A DNA stretch of 64,000 nt from a virus (IMGVR_UViG_3300037882_002350:18999-82998), one strand, 5' to 3'. Counted from the stretch's first letter, positions 7,010-62,527 are shown. Translations and numbers: made by a program. The notes: a model not told the origin generated them from the letters alone.

Positions 7010-8995
7010 TTAAGATGCTGGGAATCTAAGACCTACAACAGACTTAGCGTCTGGAATAATTTCATCAAAGCCAAGACGTTGGCTAGATACTAGCACAGTT
7101 CGCTGATTTTCAGTCTGGTATTCGCTTTCGATTGTCATACCACGTAGACGTGGAATTACGAAGTTACGACGATTTAGAGCAAGAGCAAAGTAGTTATTTG
7201 CACCTGCTGGAGCAAATTCATCACACATAATAACGGAAGAACCGTATAGACGTCCAACTTCACCTGTAAGCTTGTTTGCATTTTGTGCACCAACCAAATC
7301 AGCGTCAGCAAATTCAGGGTCTTCAATTAGCTGGAAGTACGCGTCTTGTGAAACGATATAAACTACATCACGAGGATCCAGACCGTATTTACCCATTGTC
7401 TTACGAAGACCAAACAAACCAGCGCCTGTAAGCTGTGTGCTCAAGCTTGCTGCTGTAACAGTACGGCTGTTAGTAGCTGCAAAATTTAGAAGACCTTTAG
7501 CTGCACCAGAAGTGTATACACCTTGGTTAGTGTTACCTGCAAGAAGCATGTTTTCAACACCTCGAGCATGGGTTCTTTGCATAGATTCTCTAATCAGAGG
7601 TAAAATAGGAAGAATTGCGTCTTCTTCTGTTTCATTACCTAGATAAGCTTTGGAAATCATCTTTACAGTGCTTAGAGTTTTCTCTGTAAGTGTGATACCA
7701 CCATAAGGTGAACCAAAAGCAGCTCCTCTAGCGTCAATGTTACCATTAGGCTGAGTTCCTGCAGCTGTTGTAGCAGAAGTAATTTCTGCGTATCCAGCGT
7801 CCGGCATGATTGGGAAAGTCATTTGAGCGCTGTTCATGTTAATCTCTCTAAATAGAGGAGCAAGAATTAAGCTATTCCAAATGTCTCTTTCAATATTAGT
7901 GCTGATAATTGTTTCAAGATTATCATTACCAGTGCTTACTGTTGAGTGTGTGTTAAACTTTTCTAGAACGCCTTGACCAAACTTAGTTGAGTCAATTCCG
8001 CCCTTACGAACAGCTTTTGCAAGAATGAAAGCGTCTTCTGCTTCACGCATCAAACCTTCATTTTTGAAAGGATCTGAAGTTTTATCGCTAAAGTTTCTTT
8101 TTGATTCTGTGAACGCTTTAAGTTCCGCACTCTTAGCTTCTAGATCATCTTTCATTTGAGCAATGGTCTTTTCCAAGTCTTCGTTGTTTGATTTTAGCTT
8201 ATCGCCAAATTCAGCAAGTAGTTTTTCTTCAAGACCTTTAGTTGCTGCTTGAGCAGCTACTTTAGTAGCTTCTACTGCGGCTTCTTTCTCTGCACGTTCT
8301 TTAGCAGCTTTTTCTTCTGCTTCTTTTTGCTCTTTCATTTTTTCTGCAAAAAGTTTTTCCGCTAGAGCCTTTACTTCTTCTTCATTCATTGTTTTATTCT
8401 CCGGAGGTACTTCAGTACCGGACTTGAGCGAGTCGATTTCTGAGTCTAATGCATTTACATTTTCTTCAGCAGAGTCATTCTGGCCCTTTAAAGCATTTGT
8501 TTCTATGTTAAATTTATTACGGTCTAAGTCGTTTTCAAAAGATTTGGAAACGCTAAAGACTGCTGCCTGATTACAAGGAACTGAAACAACCGATACTTCT
8601 AGTAATTCTGCGTCTCTAATAATGTAACCATCTGTTGTTTGGTTGTAGTCTGCATCTTTAATCATAAAACCTACAGAAAAAGTACTAAGTACTTCATCCT
8701 TAATTAGGCCATAAGTTTCTCCTGCAGATTTACTTATTTCACATTCAATTTTAAGACCTTGGGCATCTACTTCTAGTTTTGTTGCCCGTCCTATAGGTTT
8801 GCTGTAATTATGATTAAACAAGATTATGGGATTTTTTTGATAGTTTTCTAAACCACCTTTAACCCAAGCATCTGGAATAATTACATCACCTGCTCGGTCT
8901 GTATCGGCTGTGCTCGCATAACCTAATATCTTAAGTTTATCTCCATCTTCCGATATAGACTTAATACGAGATTCTAGTGTAAATTTACGAGCCAT
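7010..8995 (-). CDS. fused prohead protease - scaffold (delta-like) domain - HK97-fold major capsid protein
   Basis: 661 aa. The N-terminus (GYASTADTDRAGDVIIPDAW...) matches the HK97-family (S78) prohead serine protease. The middle is a Glu/Lys/Ala coiled coil (EEKAAKERAEKEAAVEATK). The C-terminal ~300 aa look like a capsid shell domain. It sits directly downstream of the portal. Confidence 0.6.
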   Translation of the reverse strand: MARKFTLESRIKSISEDGDKLKILGYASTADTDRAGDVIIPDAWVKGGLENYQKNPIILFNHNYSKPIGRATKLEVDAQGLKIECEISKSAGETYGLIKDEVLSTFSVGFMIKDADYNQTTDGYIIRDAELLEVSVVSVPCNQAAVFSVSKSFENDLDRNKFNIETNALKGQNDSAEENVNALDSEIDSLKSGTEVPPENKTMNEEEVKALAEKLFAEKMKEQKEAEEKAAKERAEKEAAVEATKVAAQAATKGLEEKLLAEFGDKLKSNNEDLEKTIAQMKDDLEAKSAELKAFTESKRNFSDKTSDPFKNEGLMREAEDAFILAKAVRKGGIDSTKFGQGVLEKFNTHSTVSTGNDNLETIISTNIERDIWNSLILAPLFREINMNSAQMTFPIMPDAGYAEITSATTAAGTQPNGNIDARGAAFGSPYGGITLTEKTLSTVKMISKAYLGNETEEDAILPILPLIRESMQRTHARGVENMLLAGNTNQGVYTSGAAKGLLNFAATNSRTVTAASLSTQLTGAGLFGLRKTMGKYGLDPRDVVYIVSQDAYFQLIEDPEFADADLVGAQNANKLTGEVGRLYGSSVIMCDEFAPAGANNYFALALNRRNFVIPRLRGMTIESEYQTENQRTVLVSSQRLGFDEIIPDAKSVVGLRFPAS

Positions 8996-19115: not shown

Positions 19116-19700
19116 ATGATAAAACATTGGACCCTTGAAGAGGAAAATAAACTTAAAGAATTAAAAGCTAAAGGAATGAAGCTAAAAGATATCGCTGTTG
19201 AGCTAGGTCGCACTTATCAGGCTGTAGCGACCAGAAGTAAACGATTGAATCCTATTCACAAAGGGGGAAATCCCTCTTGGACACAAGACGAAGTAGCTTT
19301 GCTTTATCAAGACTACGACTACAATGAGTTGGAGCAACTGCTTCCTAAATCTCGTCGAGCTATTATGTCAAAATGTGAAAAATTGGGTATAAGTAAAAGA
19401 TTTCCCGGCTCAAATAAATCAGTTGGAACTATGTATACGGATAAAGTTACCACGCTATATCTTGTAGATTTTGGGAGCTTTAAAAAAGTAGGTATAACCC
19501 AGGTAGATTTAGAAATTCGTTTTAAACAAGACAAACCTTTTAAAATTTTAGACAAGATAGAGCTTGATCTGGATGAGGCTAAATATTTTGAAGAAGAAAT
19601 ACTTCGGAATATGCGCGGGTTTCGTGTGTTGGGGGATATTCGACGAGGCTTTGGAGAGTGTTTTGATTATAACTGCACCCAATTAGAGGATTTGCTTTAA
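19116..19700 (+). CDS. SANT/Myb-like HTH plus T5orf172 (GIY-YIG-related) domain protein
   Basis: N-terminus WTLEEENKLKELKAKGMKLKDIAVELGRTYQAVATRSKRL (helix-turn-helix). The C-terminal part TTLYLVDFGSFKKVGITQ...RF resembles the T5orf172/MUG113 domain. It is a paralogue of 47009..47644. It may start at the internal Met at 19176, which has a good RBS. Confidence 0.4.
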   Translation: MIKHWTLEEENKLKELKAKGMKLKDIAVELGRTYQAVATRSKRLNPIHKGGNPSWTQDEVALLYQDYDYNELEQLLPKSRRAIMSKCEKLGISKRFPGSNKSVGTMYTDKVTTLYLVDFGSFKKVGITQVDLEIRFKQDKPFKILDKIELDLDEAKYFEEEILRNMRGFRVLGDIRRGFGECFDYNCTQLEDLL

Positions 19701-25262: not shown

Positions 25263-25475
25263 TTGCGATAAGGAAGGGGTGGCGCTTGATTGTGTCGCCC
25301 TTTTCTTTTACCTTGGAATGATACGTTATATCATTACACAAAATTATTTGCAGATATTGAAAATAAATGTTGACAGCAAGGCGCTTGCTAGGTATAAGAG
25401 ATTATCAAGAGCGGGGAAGCCTCCAAACTTGAAACAAGTTGGCAATGTCGCCAAATTGAAAAAAGGAAAATGCAA

Positions 25476-36327: not shown

Positions 36328-36393
36328 TCAAGGAACCTTTTGGTTTGGATTTGTAACTCTAGCGGCGGTATTTTTATATGCACTGGTGTCAGC

Positions 36394-36822
36394 ATGATTT
36401 TAAAAATGTATGCTATTTTTGCGCGAGAAACTCTTAAACAAATGCAGTTTGAGGGTAAGCTTGCTGCGCAAGCGGGTCACGCCTTTCTACATGCTTGGTG
36501 GGATGCAGAAAACCGTCTTGAAATAAACGGACACCATTATTCTGATTATTATAGGGACGTAATGCTTCCTTATAAAAACGGAAATGATGCCCGTAAAATC
36601 ACCTTAGTTGTAGATACTGTCGACGAGCTAGAGGAACTGTACTATAAATTCCGTCCCCATATGGGAGCAACTCTTGTAGAAGACTGTGGTTATACGGTTT
36701 TTGATGAACCAACAATAACAGCTGTTGGACTCGGTCCAATTCCTAGTGACTGGACTATAGGTACGTCTTTATCTGACTTACCTACACTACAAAATGAAAT
36801 TCATGGAGAAAAATATGTTTAA
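36394..36822 (+). CDS. PTH2-family peptidyl-tRNA hydrolase-like protein
   Basis: KLAAQAGHAFLHAW matches the PTH2 catalytic motif (KIAAQCSHA...). TLVVDT..EL and TLVEDCGYTVF..PTITAVGLGP correspond to conserved PTH2 strands. Confidence 0.45.
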   Translation: MILKMYAIFARETLKQMQFEGKLAAQAGHAFLHAWWDAENRLEINGHHYSDYYRDVMLPYKNGNDARKITLVVDTVDELEELYYKFRPHMGATLVEDCGYTVFDEPTITAVGLGPIPSDWTIGTSLSDLPTLQNEIHGEKYV

Positions 36823-49698: not shown

Positions 49699-49728
49699 CT
49701 TGACAGAACACTTAAAATTTAATATAAT
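49699..49728 (+). promoter_or_regulatory. consensus early promoter
   Basis: TTGACA (49699-704) and TATAAT (49723-28), then GAG. Confidence 0.5.
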
Positions 49729-49756
49729 GAGTCATTAAAGAAAGGGAGTCTTTCAA

Positions 49757-50776
49757 ATGAAATACGATTTATTAGTTTACATAGGGCGCTTTCAGCCACT
49801 TCATCGGGGACACCAAGAAGTGATTGAACGTGCCCTTTTGCTTTCCAAAAAGGTGCTTGTTCTAGTTGGTTCAGCAAACCAAGCGCGTACGACGCGCAAC
49901 CCATTCACTTATGATGAACGTGCAACTCTAATTAATGAGCTATACCCAAGTGTAGTCACTAAGCCTCTACAAGACCATACCTACAACGATACGGCGTGGA
50001 TTGCGGAAGTACAAAAACAAGTTAAAGAAACTTTGCTAGGAACTGGTTGGACTCCTGATGGTCTTTCTGATTACAAAGTTGGCCTCATAGGTTGCAACAA
50101 AGATGCAACATCTTACTACCTTAAGATGTTCCCAAATTGGGCTAACGAAAGTATAGAGCATTTTGATGAAATTGACGCAACTCCTATTCGCAATCGCTTT
50201 CTAGCCAATAAAATGAATGAAGCTTTTATGGAGCAGGTTGTTATAAGTCAAAATGTATACGAGTTTATGCAAGACTTTATGATTACAGATAGCTATACAG
50301 CCTTAAATGAGGAATATAAGTATCTTGTTAAATATAAAGAAAACTACGGGCACGGTCCTTTCCTCACAGCTGATGCACTTATCCAGGTTGGTGGGAAAAT
50401 CCTACTTATCCGTCGCGGAAAAGAATATGGACATGGTCTGTTGGCGCTTCCCGGTGGATTTGTTAATCTGGGAGAGACCTTTATCAACGCTTTCCTTCGG
50501 GAACTGCGAGAGGAAACAAATCTTAGAGTCCCTGTGCCAGTCTTAAAAGGCTCAATTAAGAATACTTTTATGGCTGATGAACCTAATCGTTCGGCACGAG
50601 CACGGCTAGTGTCACAAGTATTCCACGTTAAACTGGAAAACGATGTGAAATTGCCCGAAGTACGTGGCGGCGACGATGCTGATGAAGCGTTGTGGGTTGA
50701 TATTGCGGACTTGCGTCGTGAGGACTTCTTTGAAGACCATTATCATATTATTAAGCTTATGTTGGGGTTAAACTAA
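49757..50776 (+). CDS. nadM: bifunctional NMN adenylyltransferase / Nudix hydrolase (NadM-like)
   Basis: N-terminal GRFQPLHRGH (HxGH nucleotidyltransferase motif). C-terminal Nudix box LPGGFVNLGETFINAFLRELREETNL. Confidence 0.7.
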   Translation: MKYDLLVYIGRFQPLHRGHQEVIERALLLSKKVLVLVGSANQARTTRNPFTYDERATLINELYPSVVTKPLQDHTYNDTAWIAEVQKQVKETLLGTGWTPDGLSDYKVGLIGCNKDATSYYLKMFPNWANESIEHFDEIDATPIRNRFLANKMNEAFMEQVVISQNVYEFMQDFMITDSYTALNEEYKYLVKYKENYGHGPFLTADALIQVGGKILLIRRGKEYGHGLLALPGGFVNLGETFINAFLRELREETNLRVPVPVLKGSIKNTFMADEPNRSARARLVSQVFHVKLENDVKLPEVRGGDDADEALWVDIADLRREDFFEDHYHIIKLMLGLN

Positions 50777-51168
50777 TGGATAAAGAAGCAAAAATTCGTG
50801 CATATTCAAAAATGCTAAGAGAAGAAGCGGAGCGCTTGATTGAAGCCCCTTTTGGGGTGACAGTAGATTTAAATTCTTTCGATAAAATTCTAGAAAGCTT
50901 TATTGATGTTGCTCTAGAAGGTTATAAACCTAGACCAATAACAGGCGCTGAAATTCTTCGCCGACATACAAGGCCTGACAATGACTAAGTACATGGTTGA
51001 TGGAGGTATTTTCGAAGATACCTCCTTTGAGAAAGTAGTTGAAGGTACAGAAGAATCTTATGGACCTTTCATATCTAAGGAACGAGCTTTAAAAGAATGG
51101 AAACGAAGAACTTTTACACAGAATCTTGATATTTGTACACATAGAATGAAAGTTGTAGAAATAAATTA

Positions 51169-51855
51169 ATGTTACAATTATATACACCAAATACAATTCC
51201 ATTTTGGACAGAAGACGAAATCGAATTTAGAGAACTTTTTCAAGCACGAGTAGTAACTCGTATTAAACAGACTCTCACAGATATGAATAAAGCTTGGCGT
51301 TTTCATCGAATCGAAGGTCCTTGCCTGTCCCCTAGATATAAAATTGGTAATAGTTATGATGATAGTGATATTTTTGTCACTAATCATAAAGTAGAGTCTG
51401 ATTTTTTATGTCTAAGGGCAGAAACAACGCCATCTAGTTATGAATATGCGAGATTTTTAAACAAACAGCAATTACCTTTATGTGTATGGCAATCTGGTAA
51501 AAGTTTTCGCCGTGAAGTTAATGATGGTGCAACAGCTGCGAAACTTCGTTTCAATGAATTCTATCAATTAGAGTTTCAGTGTATTTATAGTAACACAACA
51601 AAAGCGGATTATAGATCAGCCCTTATTGATGCCGTTGAACAAGAGATTGAACGGTTCACTCAATGTAAAACTCGAGTTGTAGAAAGTGATAGACTTCCTT
51701 TATATTCGGATAGTACTCTAGATATTGAAGTTTATTTAAATAACGAATGGCGAGAGATAGCTTCTTGCTCCATTCGTAATGACTTTTCCGAAAATACGAA
51801 AGTTGCCGAGATCGCTATTGGCCTAGATCGTGTTGTGATAGCGAGTGATATTTAA
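51169..51855 (+). CDS. class II aminoacyl-tRNA synthetase-like catalytic core (class IIb-like, truncated)
   Basis: Motif 2-like KSFRREVNDGATAAKLRFNEFYQLEFQ (fRxE...R..EF.Q.E). Motif 3-like AEIAIGLDRVVIASDI (GxGxDR). Only 228 aa, with no anticodon-binding domain. Confidence 0.4.
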   Translation: MLQLYTPNTIPFWTEDEIEFRELFQARVVTRIKQTLTDMNKAWRFHRIEGPCLSPRYKIGNSYDDSDIFVTNHKVESDFLCLRAETTPSSYEYARFLNKQQLPLCVWQSGKSFRREVNDGATAAKLRFNEFYQLEFQCIYSNTTKADYRSALIDAVEQEIERFTQCKTRVVESDRLPLYSDSTLDIEVYLNNEWREIASCSIRNDFSENTKVAEIAIGLDRVVIASDI

Positions 51856-52069
51856 TGGTTAAATACGCTGTTCATCAGTATATTAAAAAATGTAATGTAA
51901 AAAATTAGAATGGACTTCCTTTTTACAATCCAATAACTCAACCAAGAGACACTCTAGAAGAAGCCGAGCAGGATTTTATACGTTTTAGTAATTATGAAAG
52001 AATAGATAAAATGAGGTACCCTCTTAGTATACGAGAATTTAGTGGCTACGGTCTTGTTATAAAGGAATA

Positions 52070-52582
52070 ATGATGCAAGTATTTTTAGACTGTGATGGCG
52101 TATTAGCAGATTTTGACGGGTTCGCCGCAGAAATTTTAGGTATGCCTCCACGTGATTATGAGCGTGAAAAACATAACAACTCTGACTTATGGGAACGACT
52201 GTATGCAGTTGAAGATTACTTCTTCAAGCTACCTAAAATGCATGATGCCGACGAACTTGTTGCAGGTGTAGAAGCGTTTGGTTTTGCCCCTATAATTCTT
52301 ACAGGTATTCCTAGTAAGGGTGGCAGCGATTGGGCTATTGACCAAAAAACACGCTGGGCGCAGGTTCATTTTCCTAATCTTGACATTATTTGTTGTAAGA
52401 GTAAGGAAAAAGCCTTTAATATGATTGAAGGTAAGCATAACGTACTTATTGATGACTGGACACAATATAAACACGTATGGGAAGAACATGGAGGGTCTTT
52501 CATTGTACACACAAGCGCAAAGAAATCACTAGCAGAATTGCAGCAACTTGATATGCTTATGAATATTCAGGGTGTGTATTAA
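52070..52582 (+). CDS. 5'(3')-deoxyribonucleotidase (NT5C-type HAD)
   Basis: VFLDCDGVLADF N-terminal motif typical of the NT5C family. 170 aa. Confidence 0.5.
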   Translation: MMQVFLDCDGVLADFDGFAAEILGMPPRDYEREKHNNSDLWERLYAVEDYFFKLPKMHDADELVAGVEAFGFAPIILTGIPSKGGSDWAIDQKTRWAQVHFPNLDIICCKSKEKAFNMIEGKHNVLIDDWTQYKHVWEEHGGSFIVHTSAKKSLAELQQLDMLMNIQGVY

Positions 52583-52636
52583 CCCTCAAAAAATTTACAT
52601 CTTGACTTCAGGGTTATAGATAAGTAAAATAGAAAA

Positions 52637-53260
52637 ATGAATAAAATAGAATTTATAGAAGCGATGTTAAAAAATCGCAAATTGAACCCCGAAGACCTTG
52701 TTAGAAAAAAGTATCGCACTGTTCCTAATATCACGGCTTTTAGTTTATTTGAGTCCATCTTTGAAAGAGAAAATGTCAGAGCCATTGCAGCCTACTATGG
52801 AGTGGGTATAAATACAATTAACCGGTTAATGAAAACTCTATTTCCAGATGTTACCATAAAAGGAGGCTCTAGGACTTGGAGATATTATTTACTAGATATT
52901 TTGCGACACAAAATGTGTACAGATTGTGAAGTAATCAAGTCGAAAGAAGAATTTTATATAGGAAATGTAACAGAATTACGTTCTACATGTAAAAGCTGTG
53001 ATGTAGAACGAGCAGCCAAAAGAAGAGCAAAAATATTAAAAGCTACTGATATAGATTCTAGTTTAGATATAATTCAGACAATTTATGCAAATTGCCCAAA
53101 AGGTTATCATGTTGACCATATCATACCTTTAGATAAAGGAGGTAGACATCATCAAAATAATTTATGTTATTTATCTGCTACCGATAATCTACATAAAAGT
53201 AATAAATTACCGGAAATGATACCTGATATAATGGCAAGAGCTATATATCCTAAAATATAA
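52637..53260 (+). CDS. HNH homing endonuclease
   Basis: C-terminal CPKGYHVDHIIPLDKGGRHHQNNLCYLSATDNLHKSNK. Paralogue of 62801..63481. Leaderless: the ATG is 7 nt after a TAAAAT -10. Confidence 0.6.
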   Translation: MNKIEFIEAMLKNRKLNPEDLVRKKYRTVPNITAFSLFESIFERENVRAIAAYYGVGINTINRLMKTLFPDVTIKGGSRTWRYYLLDILRHKMCTDCEVIKSKEEFYIGNVTELRSTCKSCDVERAAKRRAKILKATDIDSSLDIIQTIYANCPKGYHVDHIIPLDKGGRHHQNNLCYLSATDNLHKSNKLPEMIPDIMARAIYPKI

Positions 53261-53263
53261 TTG

Positions 53264-53292
53264 TTGACAATGCTTCTTATTTTTACTATAAT
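53264..53292 (+). promoter_or_regulatory. consensus early promoter
   Basis: TTGACA (53264-69), 17 nt spacer, TATAAT (53287-92), then GAG. Confidence 0.55.
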
Positions 53293-53322
53293 GAGCACAT
53301 AAAGAAAGAAGGGAGTCTTCTA

Positions 53323-54705
53323 ATGACCAAGTTTAATTTCATCCAAGACACTGATAGTTACAAATTTTCCCATTACCAATATTACGTTCCTGGAGCGGAA
53401 CACATTTATAGCTACGCGGAGAGTCGTGGTGGTGTATATCCTGCAAGCGTATTCTTTGGATTACAAAAATATATTAAAGAATTAGCTGATGTTCGTGTAA
53501 CCCTTGACGACTTAGTAGAGGCTTCAGAGTTCGCAGAAGCACACGGTGTACCTTTCAACTATACTGGCTGGAAGAGCATCGTTGTAGACCACAATGGAAA
53601 AATTCCAGTACGTATCAAAGCGGTTGCGGAAGGCACTCTCGTGCCAACCAGCAATGTTCTCGTAACGGTTGAGAATACTGACCCTTCGATGCCTTGGCTA
53701 ACCAGCTATATCGAAACTGCACTTCTGAGAGCGGTTTGGTATCCTACGACTGTAGCTACTCGTATTCACTACATGAAAGAAAGGATTAAGCCATTCTTCG
53801 ATGAAACCAGCGATACTGGCGACATGGGTTTTGCTATTCTTGACTTCTCGGCTCGTGGCGTTTCCAGCCGTGAAACTGCCGAAGTTGGTGGTCTTGGTCA
53901 TTTGGTTCACTTTATCGGTTCGGACAACATTCCAGCTGTTCTAGCTGCTCGTAAATTCTATGATGAGCCAATGGCCGCTTTCAGCGTTGCTGCAACAGAA
54001 CATAGTGTCATGACTAGTTGGGGTGATGAAAATCGTGAGAGCGAAGCAATAAAATATATGATCGATACGATGCCAGAAAACGGTATTCTATCAGTTGTTG
54101 GTGATACTTATAATATCTACAATTTTATTGATAAAGTAGCTCGTCTAGAGGATAAGATTGCGGCTAAGAATGGTACCTTTGTAATCCGCCCAGATTCTGG
54201 CGATATGAATGTTGTGTTACCTAAAGTTTTTGAAAAGGTTCGTAATCTTTTTCAAGGCGAATTTAACAACAAAGGCTATTTCGTGCCTAAGTATGTTAAA
54301 GTTCTGCAAGGCGACGGTATTGATGAGGTTAGTGTTTCTACCCCCTTTAAATTGGCAATGGAAGAAGGGCTTAGTGCAGATTGTATTATGACGGGCTCTG
54401 GTGGTGGACTTATGCAATCGCATATTGATCGTGACACACTAAAATTTGCCTTTAAAGCATCCAGCGTCACTATTAATGGTGTTGATGTTCCGATCGCTAA
54501 GGAACCATTCACTGATCCGGGAAAACGGAGCAAAAAGGGTAAACTAAAGTTAATTACCAATGAAAATAAATATATGACTGTTTCATCTGAAAATGAAAAG
54601 TTTTATCATATAATGTGTGACGAATTAAAACTTGTATATGAGAACGGCGAGGTTTTCAATAACCAAACACTAGCACAAATTCGGGAACGTGCTGCAAAAA
54701 ACTAA
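53323..54705 (+). CDS. nadV: nicotinamide phosphoribosyltransferase (Nampt/NadV)
   Basis: 460 aa. The N-terminus FNFIQDTDSYKFSHYQYY parallels the Nampt N-terminus (FNILLATDSYKVTHYKQY). Size and general similarity fit NadV. Confidence 0.65.
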   Translation: MTKFNFIQDTDSYKFSHYQYYVPGAEHIYSYAESRGGVYPASVFFGLQKYIKELADVRVTLDDLVEASEFAEAHGVPFNYTGWKSIVVDHNGKIPVRIKAVAEGTLVPTSNVLVTVENTDPSMPWLTSYIETALLRAVWYPTTVATRIHYMKERIKPFFDETSDTGDMGFAILDFSARGVSSRETAEVGGLGHLVHFIGSDNIPAVLAARKFYDEPMAAFSVAATEHSVMTSWGDENRESEAIKYMIDTMPENGILSVVGDTYNIYNFIDKVARLEDKIAAKNGTFVIRPDSGDMNVVLPKVFEKVRNLFQGEFNNKGYFVPKYVKVLQGDGIDEVSVSTPFKLAMEEGLSADCIMTGSGGGLMQSHIDRDTLKFAFKASSVTINGVDVPIAKEPFTDPGKRSKKGKLKLITNENKYMTVSSENEKFYHIMCDELKLVYENGEVFNNQTLAQIRERAAKN

Positions 54706-54769
54706 TGTTATAGGGTAGAGTCAAAAATTGATCTTGACTCTGCCCTTTTTCTTTGCTATAAGGATTGTA

Positions 54770-62041: not shown

Positions 62042-62527
62042 ATGAAACTATTTACAATCGCAGCACTAGCTGCTGCCCTCGTAACGACACCAGCTCTTTC
62101 GCGAACTAATGAGAATTTTACCGGAGTCCGAGCAGAAGTAACGGCGGGTGTTAATGATGTTACTAATAGCCCTGATGTAAACGATGTTGTATATGGAGCA
62201 GCTATTGGCGTAGATGTACCTGTTAGTGACCGATTTACATTTGGTGTAGAAGCAAATACGAGCAATGTATTTGAAGATGAACGCCAAATTGGTGCTAGTA
62301 TGCGTATTGGTTACGCACTTAATAAACAATTTCTTGGCTACGTGAAAGGCGGTTATAACAATTATAATAATGTCTTTTCTCAAAAACTAGACGGTGCTAC
62401 AGCAGGTGCCGGTGTAGAGTTCAGCATTAGTGATAATAGCTATGTGAAAGCAGAATATAATTATACTGATTTTCAAGCTAATACAGGAAGCCACGCGGCA
62501 CTTATTGGTGTGGGACTTCGATTTTAA
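62042..62527 (+). CDS. outer-membrane beta-barrel protein (Lom/Ail/OmpX-like)
   Basis: Signal peptide MKLFTIAALAAALVTTPALS. Alternating amphipathic beta strands. Aromatic C-terminus ...ALIGVGLRF. 161 aa, RBS aggagaaacaATG. Confidence 0.55.
   Translation: MKLFTIAALAAALVTTPALSRTNENFTGVRAEVTAGVNDVTNSPDVNDVVYGAAIGVDVPVSDRFTFGVEANTSNVFEDERQIGASMRIGYALNKQFLGYVKGGYNNYNNVFSQKLDGATAGAGVEFSISDNSYVKAEYNYTDFQANTGSHAALIGVGLRF

Follow-up and report, generated by a model that had tools for sequence, protein, structure and literature searches.

The phage enzymes related to nicotinamide phosphoribosyltransferase (Nampt) fall into two clades, each belonging to its own NAD+ reconstitution pathway (NARP), and the two pathways have never been found together (Osterman et al. 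2024, bioRxiv 10.1101/2024.02.11.579819). In the Adps-associated clade (NARP1) the enzyme, Namat, uses ADP-ribose (ADPR)-pyrophosphate, and in the Nmnat-associated clade (NARP2) Nampt uses phosphoribosyl pyrophosphate (PRPP), as validated with the enzyme pair of phage KVP40 (bioRxiv 10.1101/2024.02.11.579819). Together, KVP40 Nampt and Nmnat abolish Thoeris and DSR2 defence and raise NAD+ (bioRxiv 10.1101/2024.02.11.579819), and KVP40 NARP2 also cancels aRES defence (bioRxiv 10.64898/2026.01.28.702374). A further pathway with the same purpose, NARP3, consists of PnuC and NadR (NMNAT and RNK) (Yan et al. 2026). Phages that have NadM always also have NadV (Iyer et al., PMC9503650). Here we describe a 64 kb stretch of viral DNA (IMGVR_UViG_3300037882_002350:18999-82998; hereafter the window), the visible part of a source contig of at least 83 kb, which very probably carries a NARP2-type NAD+ reconstitution module, formed by the genes nadM and nampt, in the early region of a T5-like phage.

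Both genes lie on the + strand exactly where the initial annotation had placed them, nadM at 49757..50776 (339 aa) and nampt at 53323..54705 (460 aa), with 2546 bp between them, in agreement with the spacing of about 2.5 kb given there. For the nadM product, a predicted bifunctional nicotinamide mononucleotide (NMN) adenylyltransferase/ADP-ribose pyrophosphatase, the proposed identity was borne out by profile searches, as both the NUDIX (1.2e-16) and the CTP_transf_like (1.7e-10) domains of Pfam were found above their gathering thresholds. The protein further matches phrog_395 (5.7e-69) and, over residues 2-338 and thus its full length, the NCBIfam model NF003786 (2.5e-105), and it aligns full length with the solved enzymes of Synechocystis (2qjo, 3.4e-68) and Francisella (2qjt, 6.7e-51). 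Its N-terminal domain contains GRFQPLHRGH (residues 10-19, the HxGH motif) and the SxTxxR-like DATPIR (140-145), whilst the C-terminal domain contains the Nudix box GFVNLGETFINAFLRELREETNL (234-256), in which the glycine of EExG is replaced by Asn. Compared with KVP40 NatV (KVP40.0162), it is 31 % identical over 353 columns (E-value 4e-55) and has the same motifs. We class it as a divergent member of the NadM-Nudix family. Homologs of this family were found in 476 of 50,697 phage records (0.9 %), in line with a published frequency of about 1.1 %.

The nampt product, proposed in the initial annotation to be a nicotinamide phosphoribosyltransferase, contains the Pfam domains NAPRTase (2.6e-35; 122.7 bits, cut-off 20.8) and NAMPT_N (5.7e-23; 81.5 bits, cut-off 25), scores 496 bits on NCBIfam PRK09198, above the cut-off of 405, and matches phrog_448, annotated as nicotinamide phosphoribosyl transferase (3.3e-138). 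Its closest solved structures, 7yqo (a bacterial Nampt, 2.4e-108) and that of human NAMPT (about 1e-85), align over the full length. We then compared the active site with that of human NAMPT, using positions that include D16, Y18, F193, R196, D219, H247, R311, D313, G353, D354, G383, G384, R392 and K400 in the human numbering. All 18 positions checked are conserved, among them the equivalents of D219 and H247; the corresponding residues of the window protein are D11, Y13, F175, R178, D201, H227, S257, D261, R289, D291, G330, D331, G360, G361, R370, K378, K393 and K401. From published NAMPT structures, we take D219 to confer amide specificity and H247 to be the site of autophosphorylation. The NAMPT_N domain, the score above the PRK09198 cut-off, and D219, H247 and 16 further residues thus place the protein in the Nampt family and not in another family of phosphoribosyltransferases.

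Within that family, four lines of evidence place the window Nampt in the PRPP-using, Nmnat-associated (NARP2) clade and not in the Namat (NARP1) clade. Its bit scores are far higher against Nampts (RsoM2USA 390, DSS3_MAL1 374, Xanthomonas 354, B1VFA 326, human 271 and KVP40 256) than against five Adps-associated Namats (99-184 bits), and in a neighbour-joining tree of 347 columns it sits within the Nampt clade. Between the equivalents of D313 and G353 it has 39 residues, as do other Nampts, compared with 129 in the Namat of Bas63; the insertion typical of the Namat clade is therefore missing. Finally, Osterman et al. (Table S2) list as 'Nmnat-associated' all five of the isolate homologs that we checked. 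Identity to KVP40 NadV is 36 % in a full-length alignment. With a Nampt of the Nmnat-associated clade and a full-length homolog of KVP40 NatV as its partner, the pair has the composition of the NAD+ reconstitution pathway that had been proposed for it.

The phage itself has no close described relative at the nucleotide level, as a megablast comparison of the locus with 50,697 phage genomes returned no match. We nevertheless class it as a distant, uncultured T5-like phage, because a homolog of A1, the DNA-transfer protein of T5 (PHROG 1745, 5.8e-152; 40 % identity to annotated A1 proteins), is found in the window together with terminase, portal, a protease/capsid fusion and major tail protein on the - strand, nine tRNAs, ThyX and dUTPase. 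Features of a T5-like (Demerecviridae-like) early region are present, namely the A1 homolog, the tRNA cluster and strong sigma-70 consensus promoters on one strand. The NAD locus is situated inside the + strand block shared with the A1 homolog, the tRNAs, ThyX and dUTPase, and, since this block holds 18 of the 21 consensus-like promoters, we regard nadM and nampt as probable early genes.

As the initial annotation had also noted, each gene possesses its own consensus promoter: TTGACA-17-TATAAT matches at all 12 positions at 49700..49728, 29 nt upstream of the nadM ATG, and at 53264..53292, 31 nt upstream of the nampt ATG, both on the + strand. The 64 kb contain only four such perfect sites; if up to one mismatch is allowed the count is 21, whilst 0.78 would be expected by chance. 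The leaders that follow are TATAAT-GAGTCATTAAAGAAAGGGAGTCTTTCAA-ATG for nadM (49729-49756) and TATAAT-GAGCACATAAAGAAAGAAGGGAGTCTTCTA-ATG for nampt (53293-53322), and in each the Shine-Dalgarno sequence is displayed in the loop of a small predicted hairpin. For nadM this is GAAAG-GGAGT-CTTTC (49740..49754, + strand; the minimum free energy structure), ending 2 nt before the ATG, and for nampt it is the compensatory variant AGAAG-GGAGT-CTTCT (53307..53321, + strand), ending 1 nt before the ATG; the stems are of 4-5 bp, with GGAG in the loop. Within the 64 kb, GGGAGTCTT occurs twice, in the nadM and nampt leaders only, and AAGGGAG on the + strand is likewise restricted to these two leaders, so the motif is not the generic ribosome-binding site of this phage. 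The two leaders are also among the most alike of 190 promoter-leader pairs, with 19/32 identical positions compared with a mean of 12.7 (standard deviation 2.7).

In the related phages L044, L045, L046 and L048 the promoter-leader design is kept, with the nadM promoter retained in position (0-2 mismatches), and the nampt promoter matches 12/12 across all five syntenic genomes. Over ten leaders from five related phages, 98 % of cells pair in the hairpin model and three of five base pairs have changed on both sides, a covariation score reached by none of 500 shuffles, where the model was derived from the same ten sequences on which it was scored; when the alignment register is slid, pairing falls to 34-66 %. 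At -3.8 to -5.9 kcal/mol the stems are weak, with a stability no greater than that of shuffled sequences (z -1.7 to +0.4), the nadM hairpin alone having -5.9 kcal/mol and z -1.67. A different hairpin of 6-8 bp around GGAG precedes both NAD genes in the rearranged relative L047. Coordinated, strong early expression of both enzymes is a reasonable reading of these twin cassettes. Their origin may lie in insertions that separated the two genes of an ancestral nadM-nampt operon like that of B1VFA.

Two other sequence elements were observed in the window. A second promoter-leader family, TTGACA-17-TATAAG followed by AGATTATCAAGA, recurs on the + strand at 25370, 26591, 27606, 27942 and 28191, just downstream of the A1 homolog, in what is probably the pre-early region. 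Just past the nampt stop codon, at 54717-54741, the inverted repeat AGAGTCAA(N9)TTGACTCT followed by a T-rich run overlaps the TTGACT-17-TATAAG promoter of the next gene; this repeat, which the terminator scan did not call, is a possible terminator.

In order to place the locus in a wider context we looked for relatives. An IMG/VR locus scan with the Nampt protein alone gave none, and those that we describe came by way of the protein database, through Nampt homologs of 54-78 % identity. Five of these loci (L044, L045, L046, L048 and L083) are syntenic with the window over dUTPase/SleB, DUF6378, nadM, nampt, phrog_624 and ThyX, and in all five a gap of 1.1-2.8 kb, with varying content, separates nadM from nampt: DUF4170, a 59-aa open reading frame (ORF) and a HAD gene in L044; Gcw_chp, PnuC, a complete NadR and HAD in L045; a radical-SAM protein and HAD in L046; and DUF4170, HAD and a Y00F-family ORF in L083. 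In L047, DUF6378-phrog_624-ThyX are contiguous, and the group of nadM, nampt and HAD, internally reordered, is found at a distance of about 4 kb. The layout of the lineage can be read as nadM, often DUF4170, a variable insertion slot, occupied in the window by a tRNA-synthetase-like gene, and then the HAD phosphatase gene and nampt. At L045:5226-7445 (JGI 3300064042, Ga0604931_0000461), components of NARP2 and NARP3 occur in one locus.

If the two enzymes act as their characterised homologs from Synechocystis, Francisella and KVP40 do, host RNA polymerase would transcribe nadM and nampt from the two perfect promoters soon after infection, and Nampt would convert nicotinamide and PRPP to NMN, from which, with ATP, the N-terminal domain of NadM would form NAD+. 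Hydrolysis of ADP-ribose by the C-terminal Nudix domain would yield AMP and ribose-5-phosphate, and from the latter host Prs could regenerate PRPP. In this manner NAD+ could stay available to the phage during cleavage by TIR, SIR2, SEFIR or RES activities, the defences concerned being Thoeris, DSR1/2, SIR2-HerA and aRES. As the pathway starts from PRPP and not from ADPR, it should also work against RES effectors that leave ADPR-1''-phosphate. We consider the pair to be a new, divergent member of NARP2, because both proteins align over their full length with the validated KVP40 pair, and an anti-defence function would be expected by homology to the KVP40 experiments.

Several observations weigh against assigning the pair to a counter-defence NARP2 module of the early region. 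Identity to the KVP40 proteins is only 36 % (Nampt) and 31 % (NadM), and the nadM product reaches 352.6 bits on NF003786, its best model, which is under the equivalog cut-off of 397 bits, so its family assignment rests on architecture and motifs. Early timing for both genes is predicted from promoter type and genome position, and the tblastn search with Bas63 Adps, which found no Adps in the window (best E-value 5.4), spans 64 kb, the contig itself being at least 83 kb long, so that an Adps might be encoded elsewhere in the genome. Moreover, NARP2 raises NAD+ even when no defence system is present (bioRxiv 10.1101/2024.02.11.579819), and selection could thus be for a general supply of NAD+.

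This last point is the basis of the alternative that survives best, namely a general auxiliary metabolic role, in which the pair boosts NAD+, for example for an NAD+-dependent ligase or as redox supply for nucleotide synthesis, and was not specifically selected as a counter-defence. The overproduction of NAD+ by NARP2 in defence-free cells (bioRxiv 10.1101/2024.02.11.579819) is what such a module would bring about, the neighbouring dUTPase, ThyX and NT5C-type nucleotidase are genes of nucleotide metabolism, and the original KVP40 work, so far as it is represented by its citation in bioRxiv 10.1101/2024.02.11.579819, framed the genes as a salvage pathway. Against it stand the experiments in which the KVP40 pair neutralizes Thoeris, DSR2 and aRES (bioRxiv 10.1101/2024.02.11.579819; bioRxiv 10.64898/2026.01.28.702374), as well as the gene content of the window, in which we identified no phage enzyme that consumes NAD+. 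A purely metabolic role is accordingly possible but doubtful as a replacement for counter-defence, with which it is in any case compatible.

A second question is whether the NARP2 module extends beyond its two enzymes, as the initial annotation had suggested in proposing a functional linkage of the intervening genes. The interval comprises five genes and the promoter of the HNH gene. Three of the genes had been recognized correctly (the class II aminoacyl-tRNA synthetase (aaRS) core, the NT5C-type nucleotidase and the HNH endonuclease), whilst two, orf70 and a gene for a DUF4170 protein, had been overlooked. The proposed linkage found some support for the nucleotidase, which is kept in the NAD locus throughout the lineage, whilst the aaRS-like and HNH genes are window-specific insertions, missing from all seven relatives.

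The nucleotidase gene (52070..52582, + strand) encodes an NT5C-type phosphatase of the HAD superfamily with 170 aa (PHROG 2643, 5.9e-22), and PF06941 is recorded for many of its homologs. The motifs DCDGV, LTG, CKSK and IDD are invariant, and a search of PDB sequences with the family profile gave nothing at E ≤ 0.01. Its PHROG and Pfam assignments suggest a family of 5'(3')-deoxyribonucleotidases. An ortholog is present within the NAD locus in seven of seven related uncultured phages; those beside nampt are 62-70 % identical in L044-L048 and 55 % identical in L083. A lineage-specific NAD module might, then, extend to the HAD phosphatase, and perhaps to DUF4170, as a functional third component, the candidate reactions being dephosphorylation of ADPR-1''-phosphate, NADP+ or a pyridine mononucleotide, in analogy to the Macro-domain phosphatase Adpp of NARP1-AP. 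Consistent with this, nadM, nampt and HAD have moved together in the rearranged L047, at least 19 contigs, paired by their equal length and in some cases of only 5-7 kb, carry close homologs of both Nampt and HAD, and the catalytic motifs are unchanged in all members. The slot between nadM and HAD holds PnuC and NadR in L045, which indicates that NAD genes accumulate at this locus, and a NARP-associated phosphatase has precedent (bioRxiv 10.64898/2026.01.28.702374).

All of these positive cases, though, come from a single syntenic lineage, within which common descent would suffice to account for the linkage. The HAD gene is missing from NARP2 loci outside the lineage (B1VFA, DSS3_MAL1, RsoM2USA and CcrBL9), it does not have the twin promoter and leader, and ADPR is not a required substrate of NARP2. 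More distant HAD homologs (26-51 % identity) occur away from NAD genes, either close to ThyX or in other, unrelated surroundings, which fits a deoxynucleoside monophosphate nucleotidase; in another group of viral contigs (L049-L063) they lie about 2.4 kb from ThyX. As such, a working third component appears unlikely, and the probability of any functional link between the HAD phosphatase and the NAD pathway is, in our estimation, similarly low. We would regard as improbable the fuller proposal of a conserved, specially regulated NAD locus with HAD as a true third enzyme ('NARP2-AP'), of which one part is that the leader hairpin might serve as a shared post-transcriptional control element.

The remaining genes of the interval are as follows. 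Downstream of nadM, orf70 (50776..50988), the DUF4170 gene (50981..51169; 62 aa, Pfam DUF4170 5.1e-11) and the aaRS-like gene (51169..51855; 228 aa, tRNA-synt_2b 3.7e-10), all on the + strand, are chained to it through overlapping stop and start codons, the start of orf70 overlapping the nadM stop in TAATG. orf70 has no family match in Pfam or PHROGs and is missing from the relatives; it is a window-specific insertion and not a component of the pathway. The DUF4170 gene is directly downstream of nadM also in L044 and L083, and hence recurs in the lineage. The HNH endonuclease gene (52637..53260, + strand; Pfam 21.3 bits, just under the cut-off of 21.4; PHROG endonuclease VII, 1.5e-11) has its own promoter at 52602-52630, which matches at 10 of 12 positions. 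It is not found at this position in L044-L046, and L048 has only an HNH-like remnant or ORF there; the gene is a mobile, window-specific insertion between the HAD gene and nampt. That the aaRS-like, orf70 and HNH genes are peculiar to the window follows from the other genes that occupy the nadM-nampt gaps of the relatives.

The aaRS-like protein is of a minimal class II type, with a GlyRS-like core and no anticodon-binding domain. An AlphaFold2 model (predicted local distance difference test score 86) is closest to GlyRS, PheRS-alpha and PylRS, the best Foldseek match being GlyRS 8t5n (1.9e-13). Throughout the family, motifs 2 and 3 are invariant, with a GlyRS-like 'LRAETT' sequence. The family is large and tightly conserved, its metagenomic members, of about 230 aa, numbering more than 1,000; it is scattered over unrelated phages and occurs in 20 sequenced isolates only, mostly annotated as hypothetical; it matches no PHROG family, and a literature search on minimal phage aaRS-like proteins found nothing specific. 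As its gene is joined by overlapping stop and start codons to nadM-orf70-DUF4170, one could imagine the protein to be coupled to NAD salvage, for instance as a HisZ-like regulator of the phosphoribosyltransferase. In Caulobacter phage CcrBL9 (gp230c, L014:6959-7684) and its relatives, the distance between a member of the family and NadM and Nampt is indeed less than 5 kb, and in contig L003/L039 it is about 6.4 kb. Nevertheless, the gene is missing in seven of seven lineage relatives that keep the NAD locus, and across IMG/VR NAD genes are found within 10 kb of only two of 27 family loci, whilst tRNA genes, in some cases in clusters of 14-21, are near 13 of 30. The association with NAD genes is thus weak, non-obligate and confounded by phylogeny and genome size. 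A HisZ-like role was rejected on the fold neighbours and the distribution, and a small-ORF partner was also rejected, since none is conserved. Coupling of the aaRS-like gene to NAD salvage, very unlikely in our view, is largely refuted by distribution.

Weaker still is the proposal that the 460-aa protein is a NARP1-type Namat using ADPR-pyrophosphate, or a nicotinate-specific phosphoribosyltransferase, for although Namat and Nampt are homologous, have most active-site residues in common and overlap in that KVP40 Nampt is partly active on ADPR-pyrophosphate (bioRxiv 10.1101/2024.02.11.579819), the window has a NadM partner and no Adps, the scores against the five Namats are far lower and the Namat insertion is missing, and the NAMPT_N domain and nicotinamide-specifying Asp are present, making either identity extremely improbable.

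A number of further features of the window were noted. A peptidyl-tRNA hydrolase of the PTH2 type is encoded in the early region at 36340-36822 (Pfam 5.7e-12), which, together with the aaRS-like gene and nine tRNAs, suggests an investment in translation and tRNA maintenance. Among the tRNA genes, at 62042-62527, lies a gene for an outer-membrane beta-barrel protein (OMP_b-brl, 1.2e-14), and similar genes (L012:10782-11477 and L046:16187-16669) recur in related and unrelated phage loci. On the - strand, a 661-aa ORF (7010-8995) matches a head maturation protease PHROG in its N-terminal part and also a major head protein PHROG, and appears to be a fused protease-capsid gene. Clues to the host point in two directions. 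A GcrA-like regulator (19116-19700), DUF4170 and the best isolate matches, which are from phages of Alphaproteobacteria, suggest a host in that class, and the 21 sigma-70 consensus promoters of Escherichia coli type argue for a proteobacterial host, whilst some short relatives were binned in metagenome-assembled genomes of Cytophagaceae or Hymenobacter (P0161, P0263).

The pair is an instance of an already described system and not a new kind of system, and it leaves the current understanding of NAD+ reconstitution unchanged. Its value is that NARP2 would be extended to a distant, uncultured T5-like lineage with at most 47 % identity to any isolate homolog, a divergent pair that illustrates how widely counter-defence is spread by horizontal transfer and whose sequences are useful for testing the breadth of the pathway. 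Judging by its conserved split architecture, with twin consensus promoters, leader hairpin, HAD phosphatase and insertion slot, the pathway may be subject to tuned expression, as would suit the metabolic cost and toxicity that have been reported for NARP2. What may be new is modest and unproven: the HAD phosphatase conserved in the lineage, which is a concrete candidate for an accessory enzyme, an insertion slot able to take up NARP3 genes, and the promoter and leader hairpin reserved for the two NAD genes.

Amongst known systems, the NadM-Nudix proteins of Synechocystis (slr0787, 2qjo) and Francisella (2qjt) are the best solved homologs and have the same bifunctional architecture; they are cellular enzymes of normal NAD metabolism, whereas the window protein falls under the NCBIfam equivalog cut-offs. 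NARP1 and NARP1-AP (Adps and Namat, with or without the Macro-domain phosphatase Adpp) pursue the same biological goal with a Namat homologous to Nampt, and with NARP1-AP a NARP locus that includes an accessory phosphatase is already known (bioRxiv 10.64898/2026.01.28.702374). The window differs in having neither Adps nor a Macro domain, in a Nampt of the other clade, which presumably uses PRPP and not ADPR-pyrophosphate, and in a phosphatase of the HAD/NT5C type, whose connection to the pathway is hypothetical. The genes of NARP3 are present in the relative L045 and not in the window, where tblastn with the L045 and KVP40 sequences found neither PnuC nor NadR; the larger early ORFs of the window likewise contain no Pfam domain of these two proteins and no further NAD-related one.

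The closest isolate homologs of the pair are those of Rhizobium phage B1VFA, DSS3_MAL1, Ralstonia phage RsoM2USA and Caulobacter phage CcrBL9, which infect Alphaproteobacteria and others and are all labelled 'Nmnat-associated' (Osterman et al. Table S2). Identity to the window proteins is 42-47 % for Nampt and 31-41 % for NadM, and the gene order, nadM then nampt, is the same. Their loci have no HAD or DUF4170 genes, and gaps of 2 bp in B1VFA and 11 bp in CcrBL9 make these single operons, in contrast to the split pair, variable cassette and second promoter of the window lineage. KVP40, the phage of Vibrio whose pair was described by Lee et al. (2017) and Osterman et al. (2024), in turn has a T4-like backbone, as opposed to the T5-like, siphovirus-type one of the window, and carries NadR and PnuC in addition; KVP40.0211 ('nadR') was considered as NatV and rejected, being of NadR type by Pfam and not matched by the cloning primer of Osterman et al. 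Its natV (KVP40.0162, at 94.5 kb) and nadV (KVP40.0264) are 42.7 kb apart, compared with 2.5 kb and twin dedicated promoters in the window, so non-adjacent genes are normal for NARP2 and are common to both phages. Above all, the two-enzyme composition is the same, with a Nampt of NAMPT_N and NAPRTase domains and an NMNAT-Nudix fusion that has the same HxGH, SxTxxR and Nudix motifs in KVP40 and in the window.

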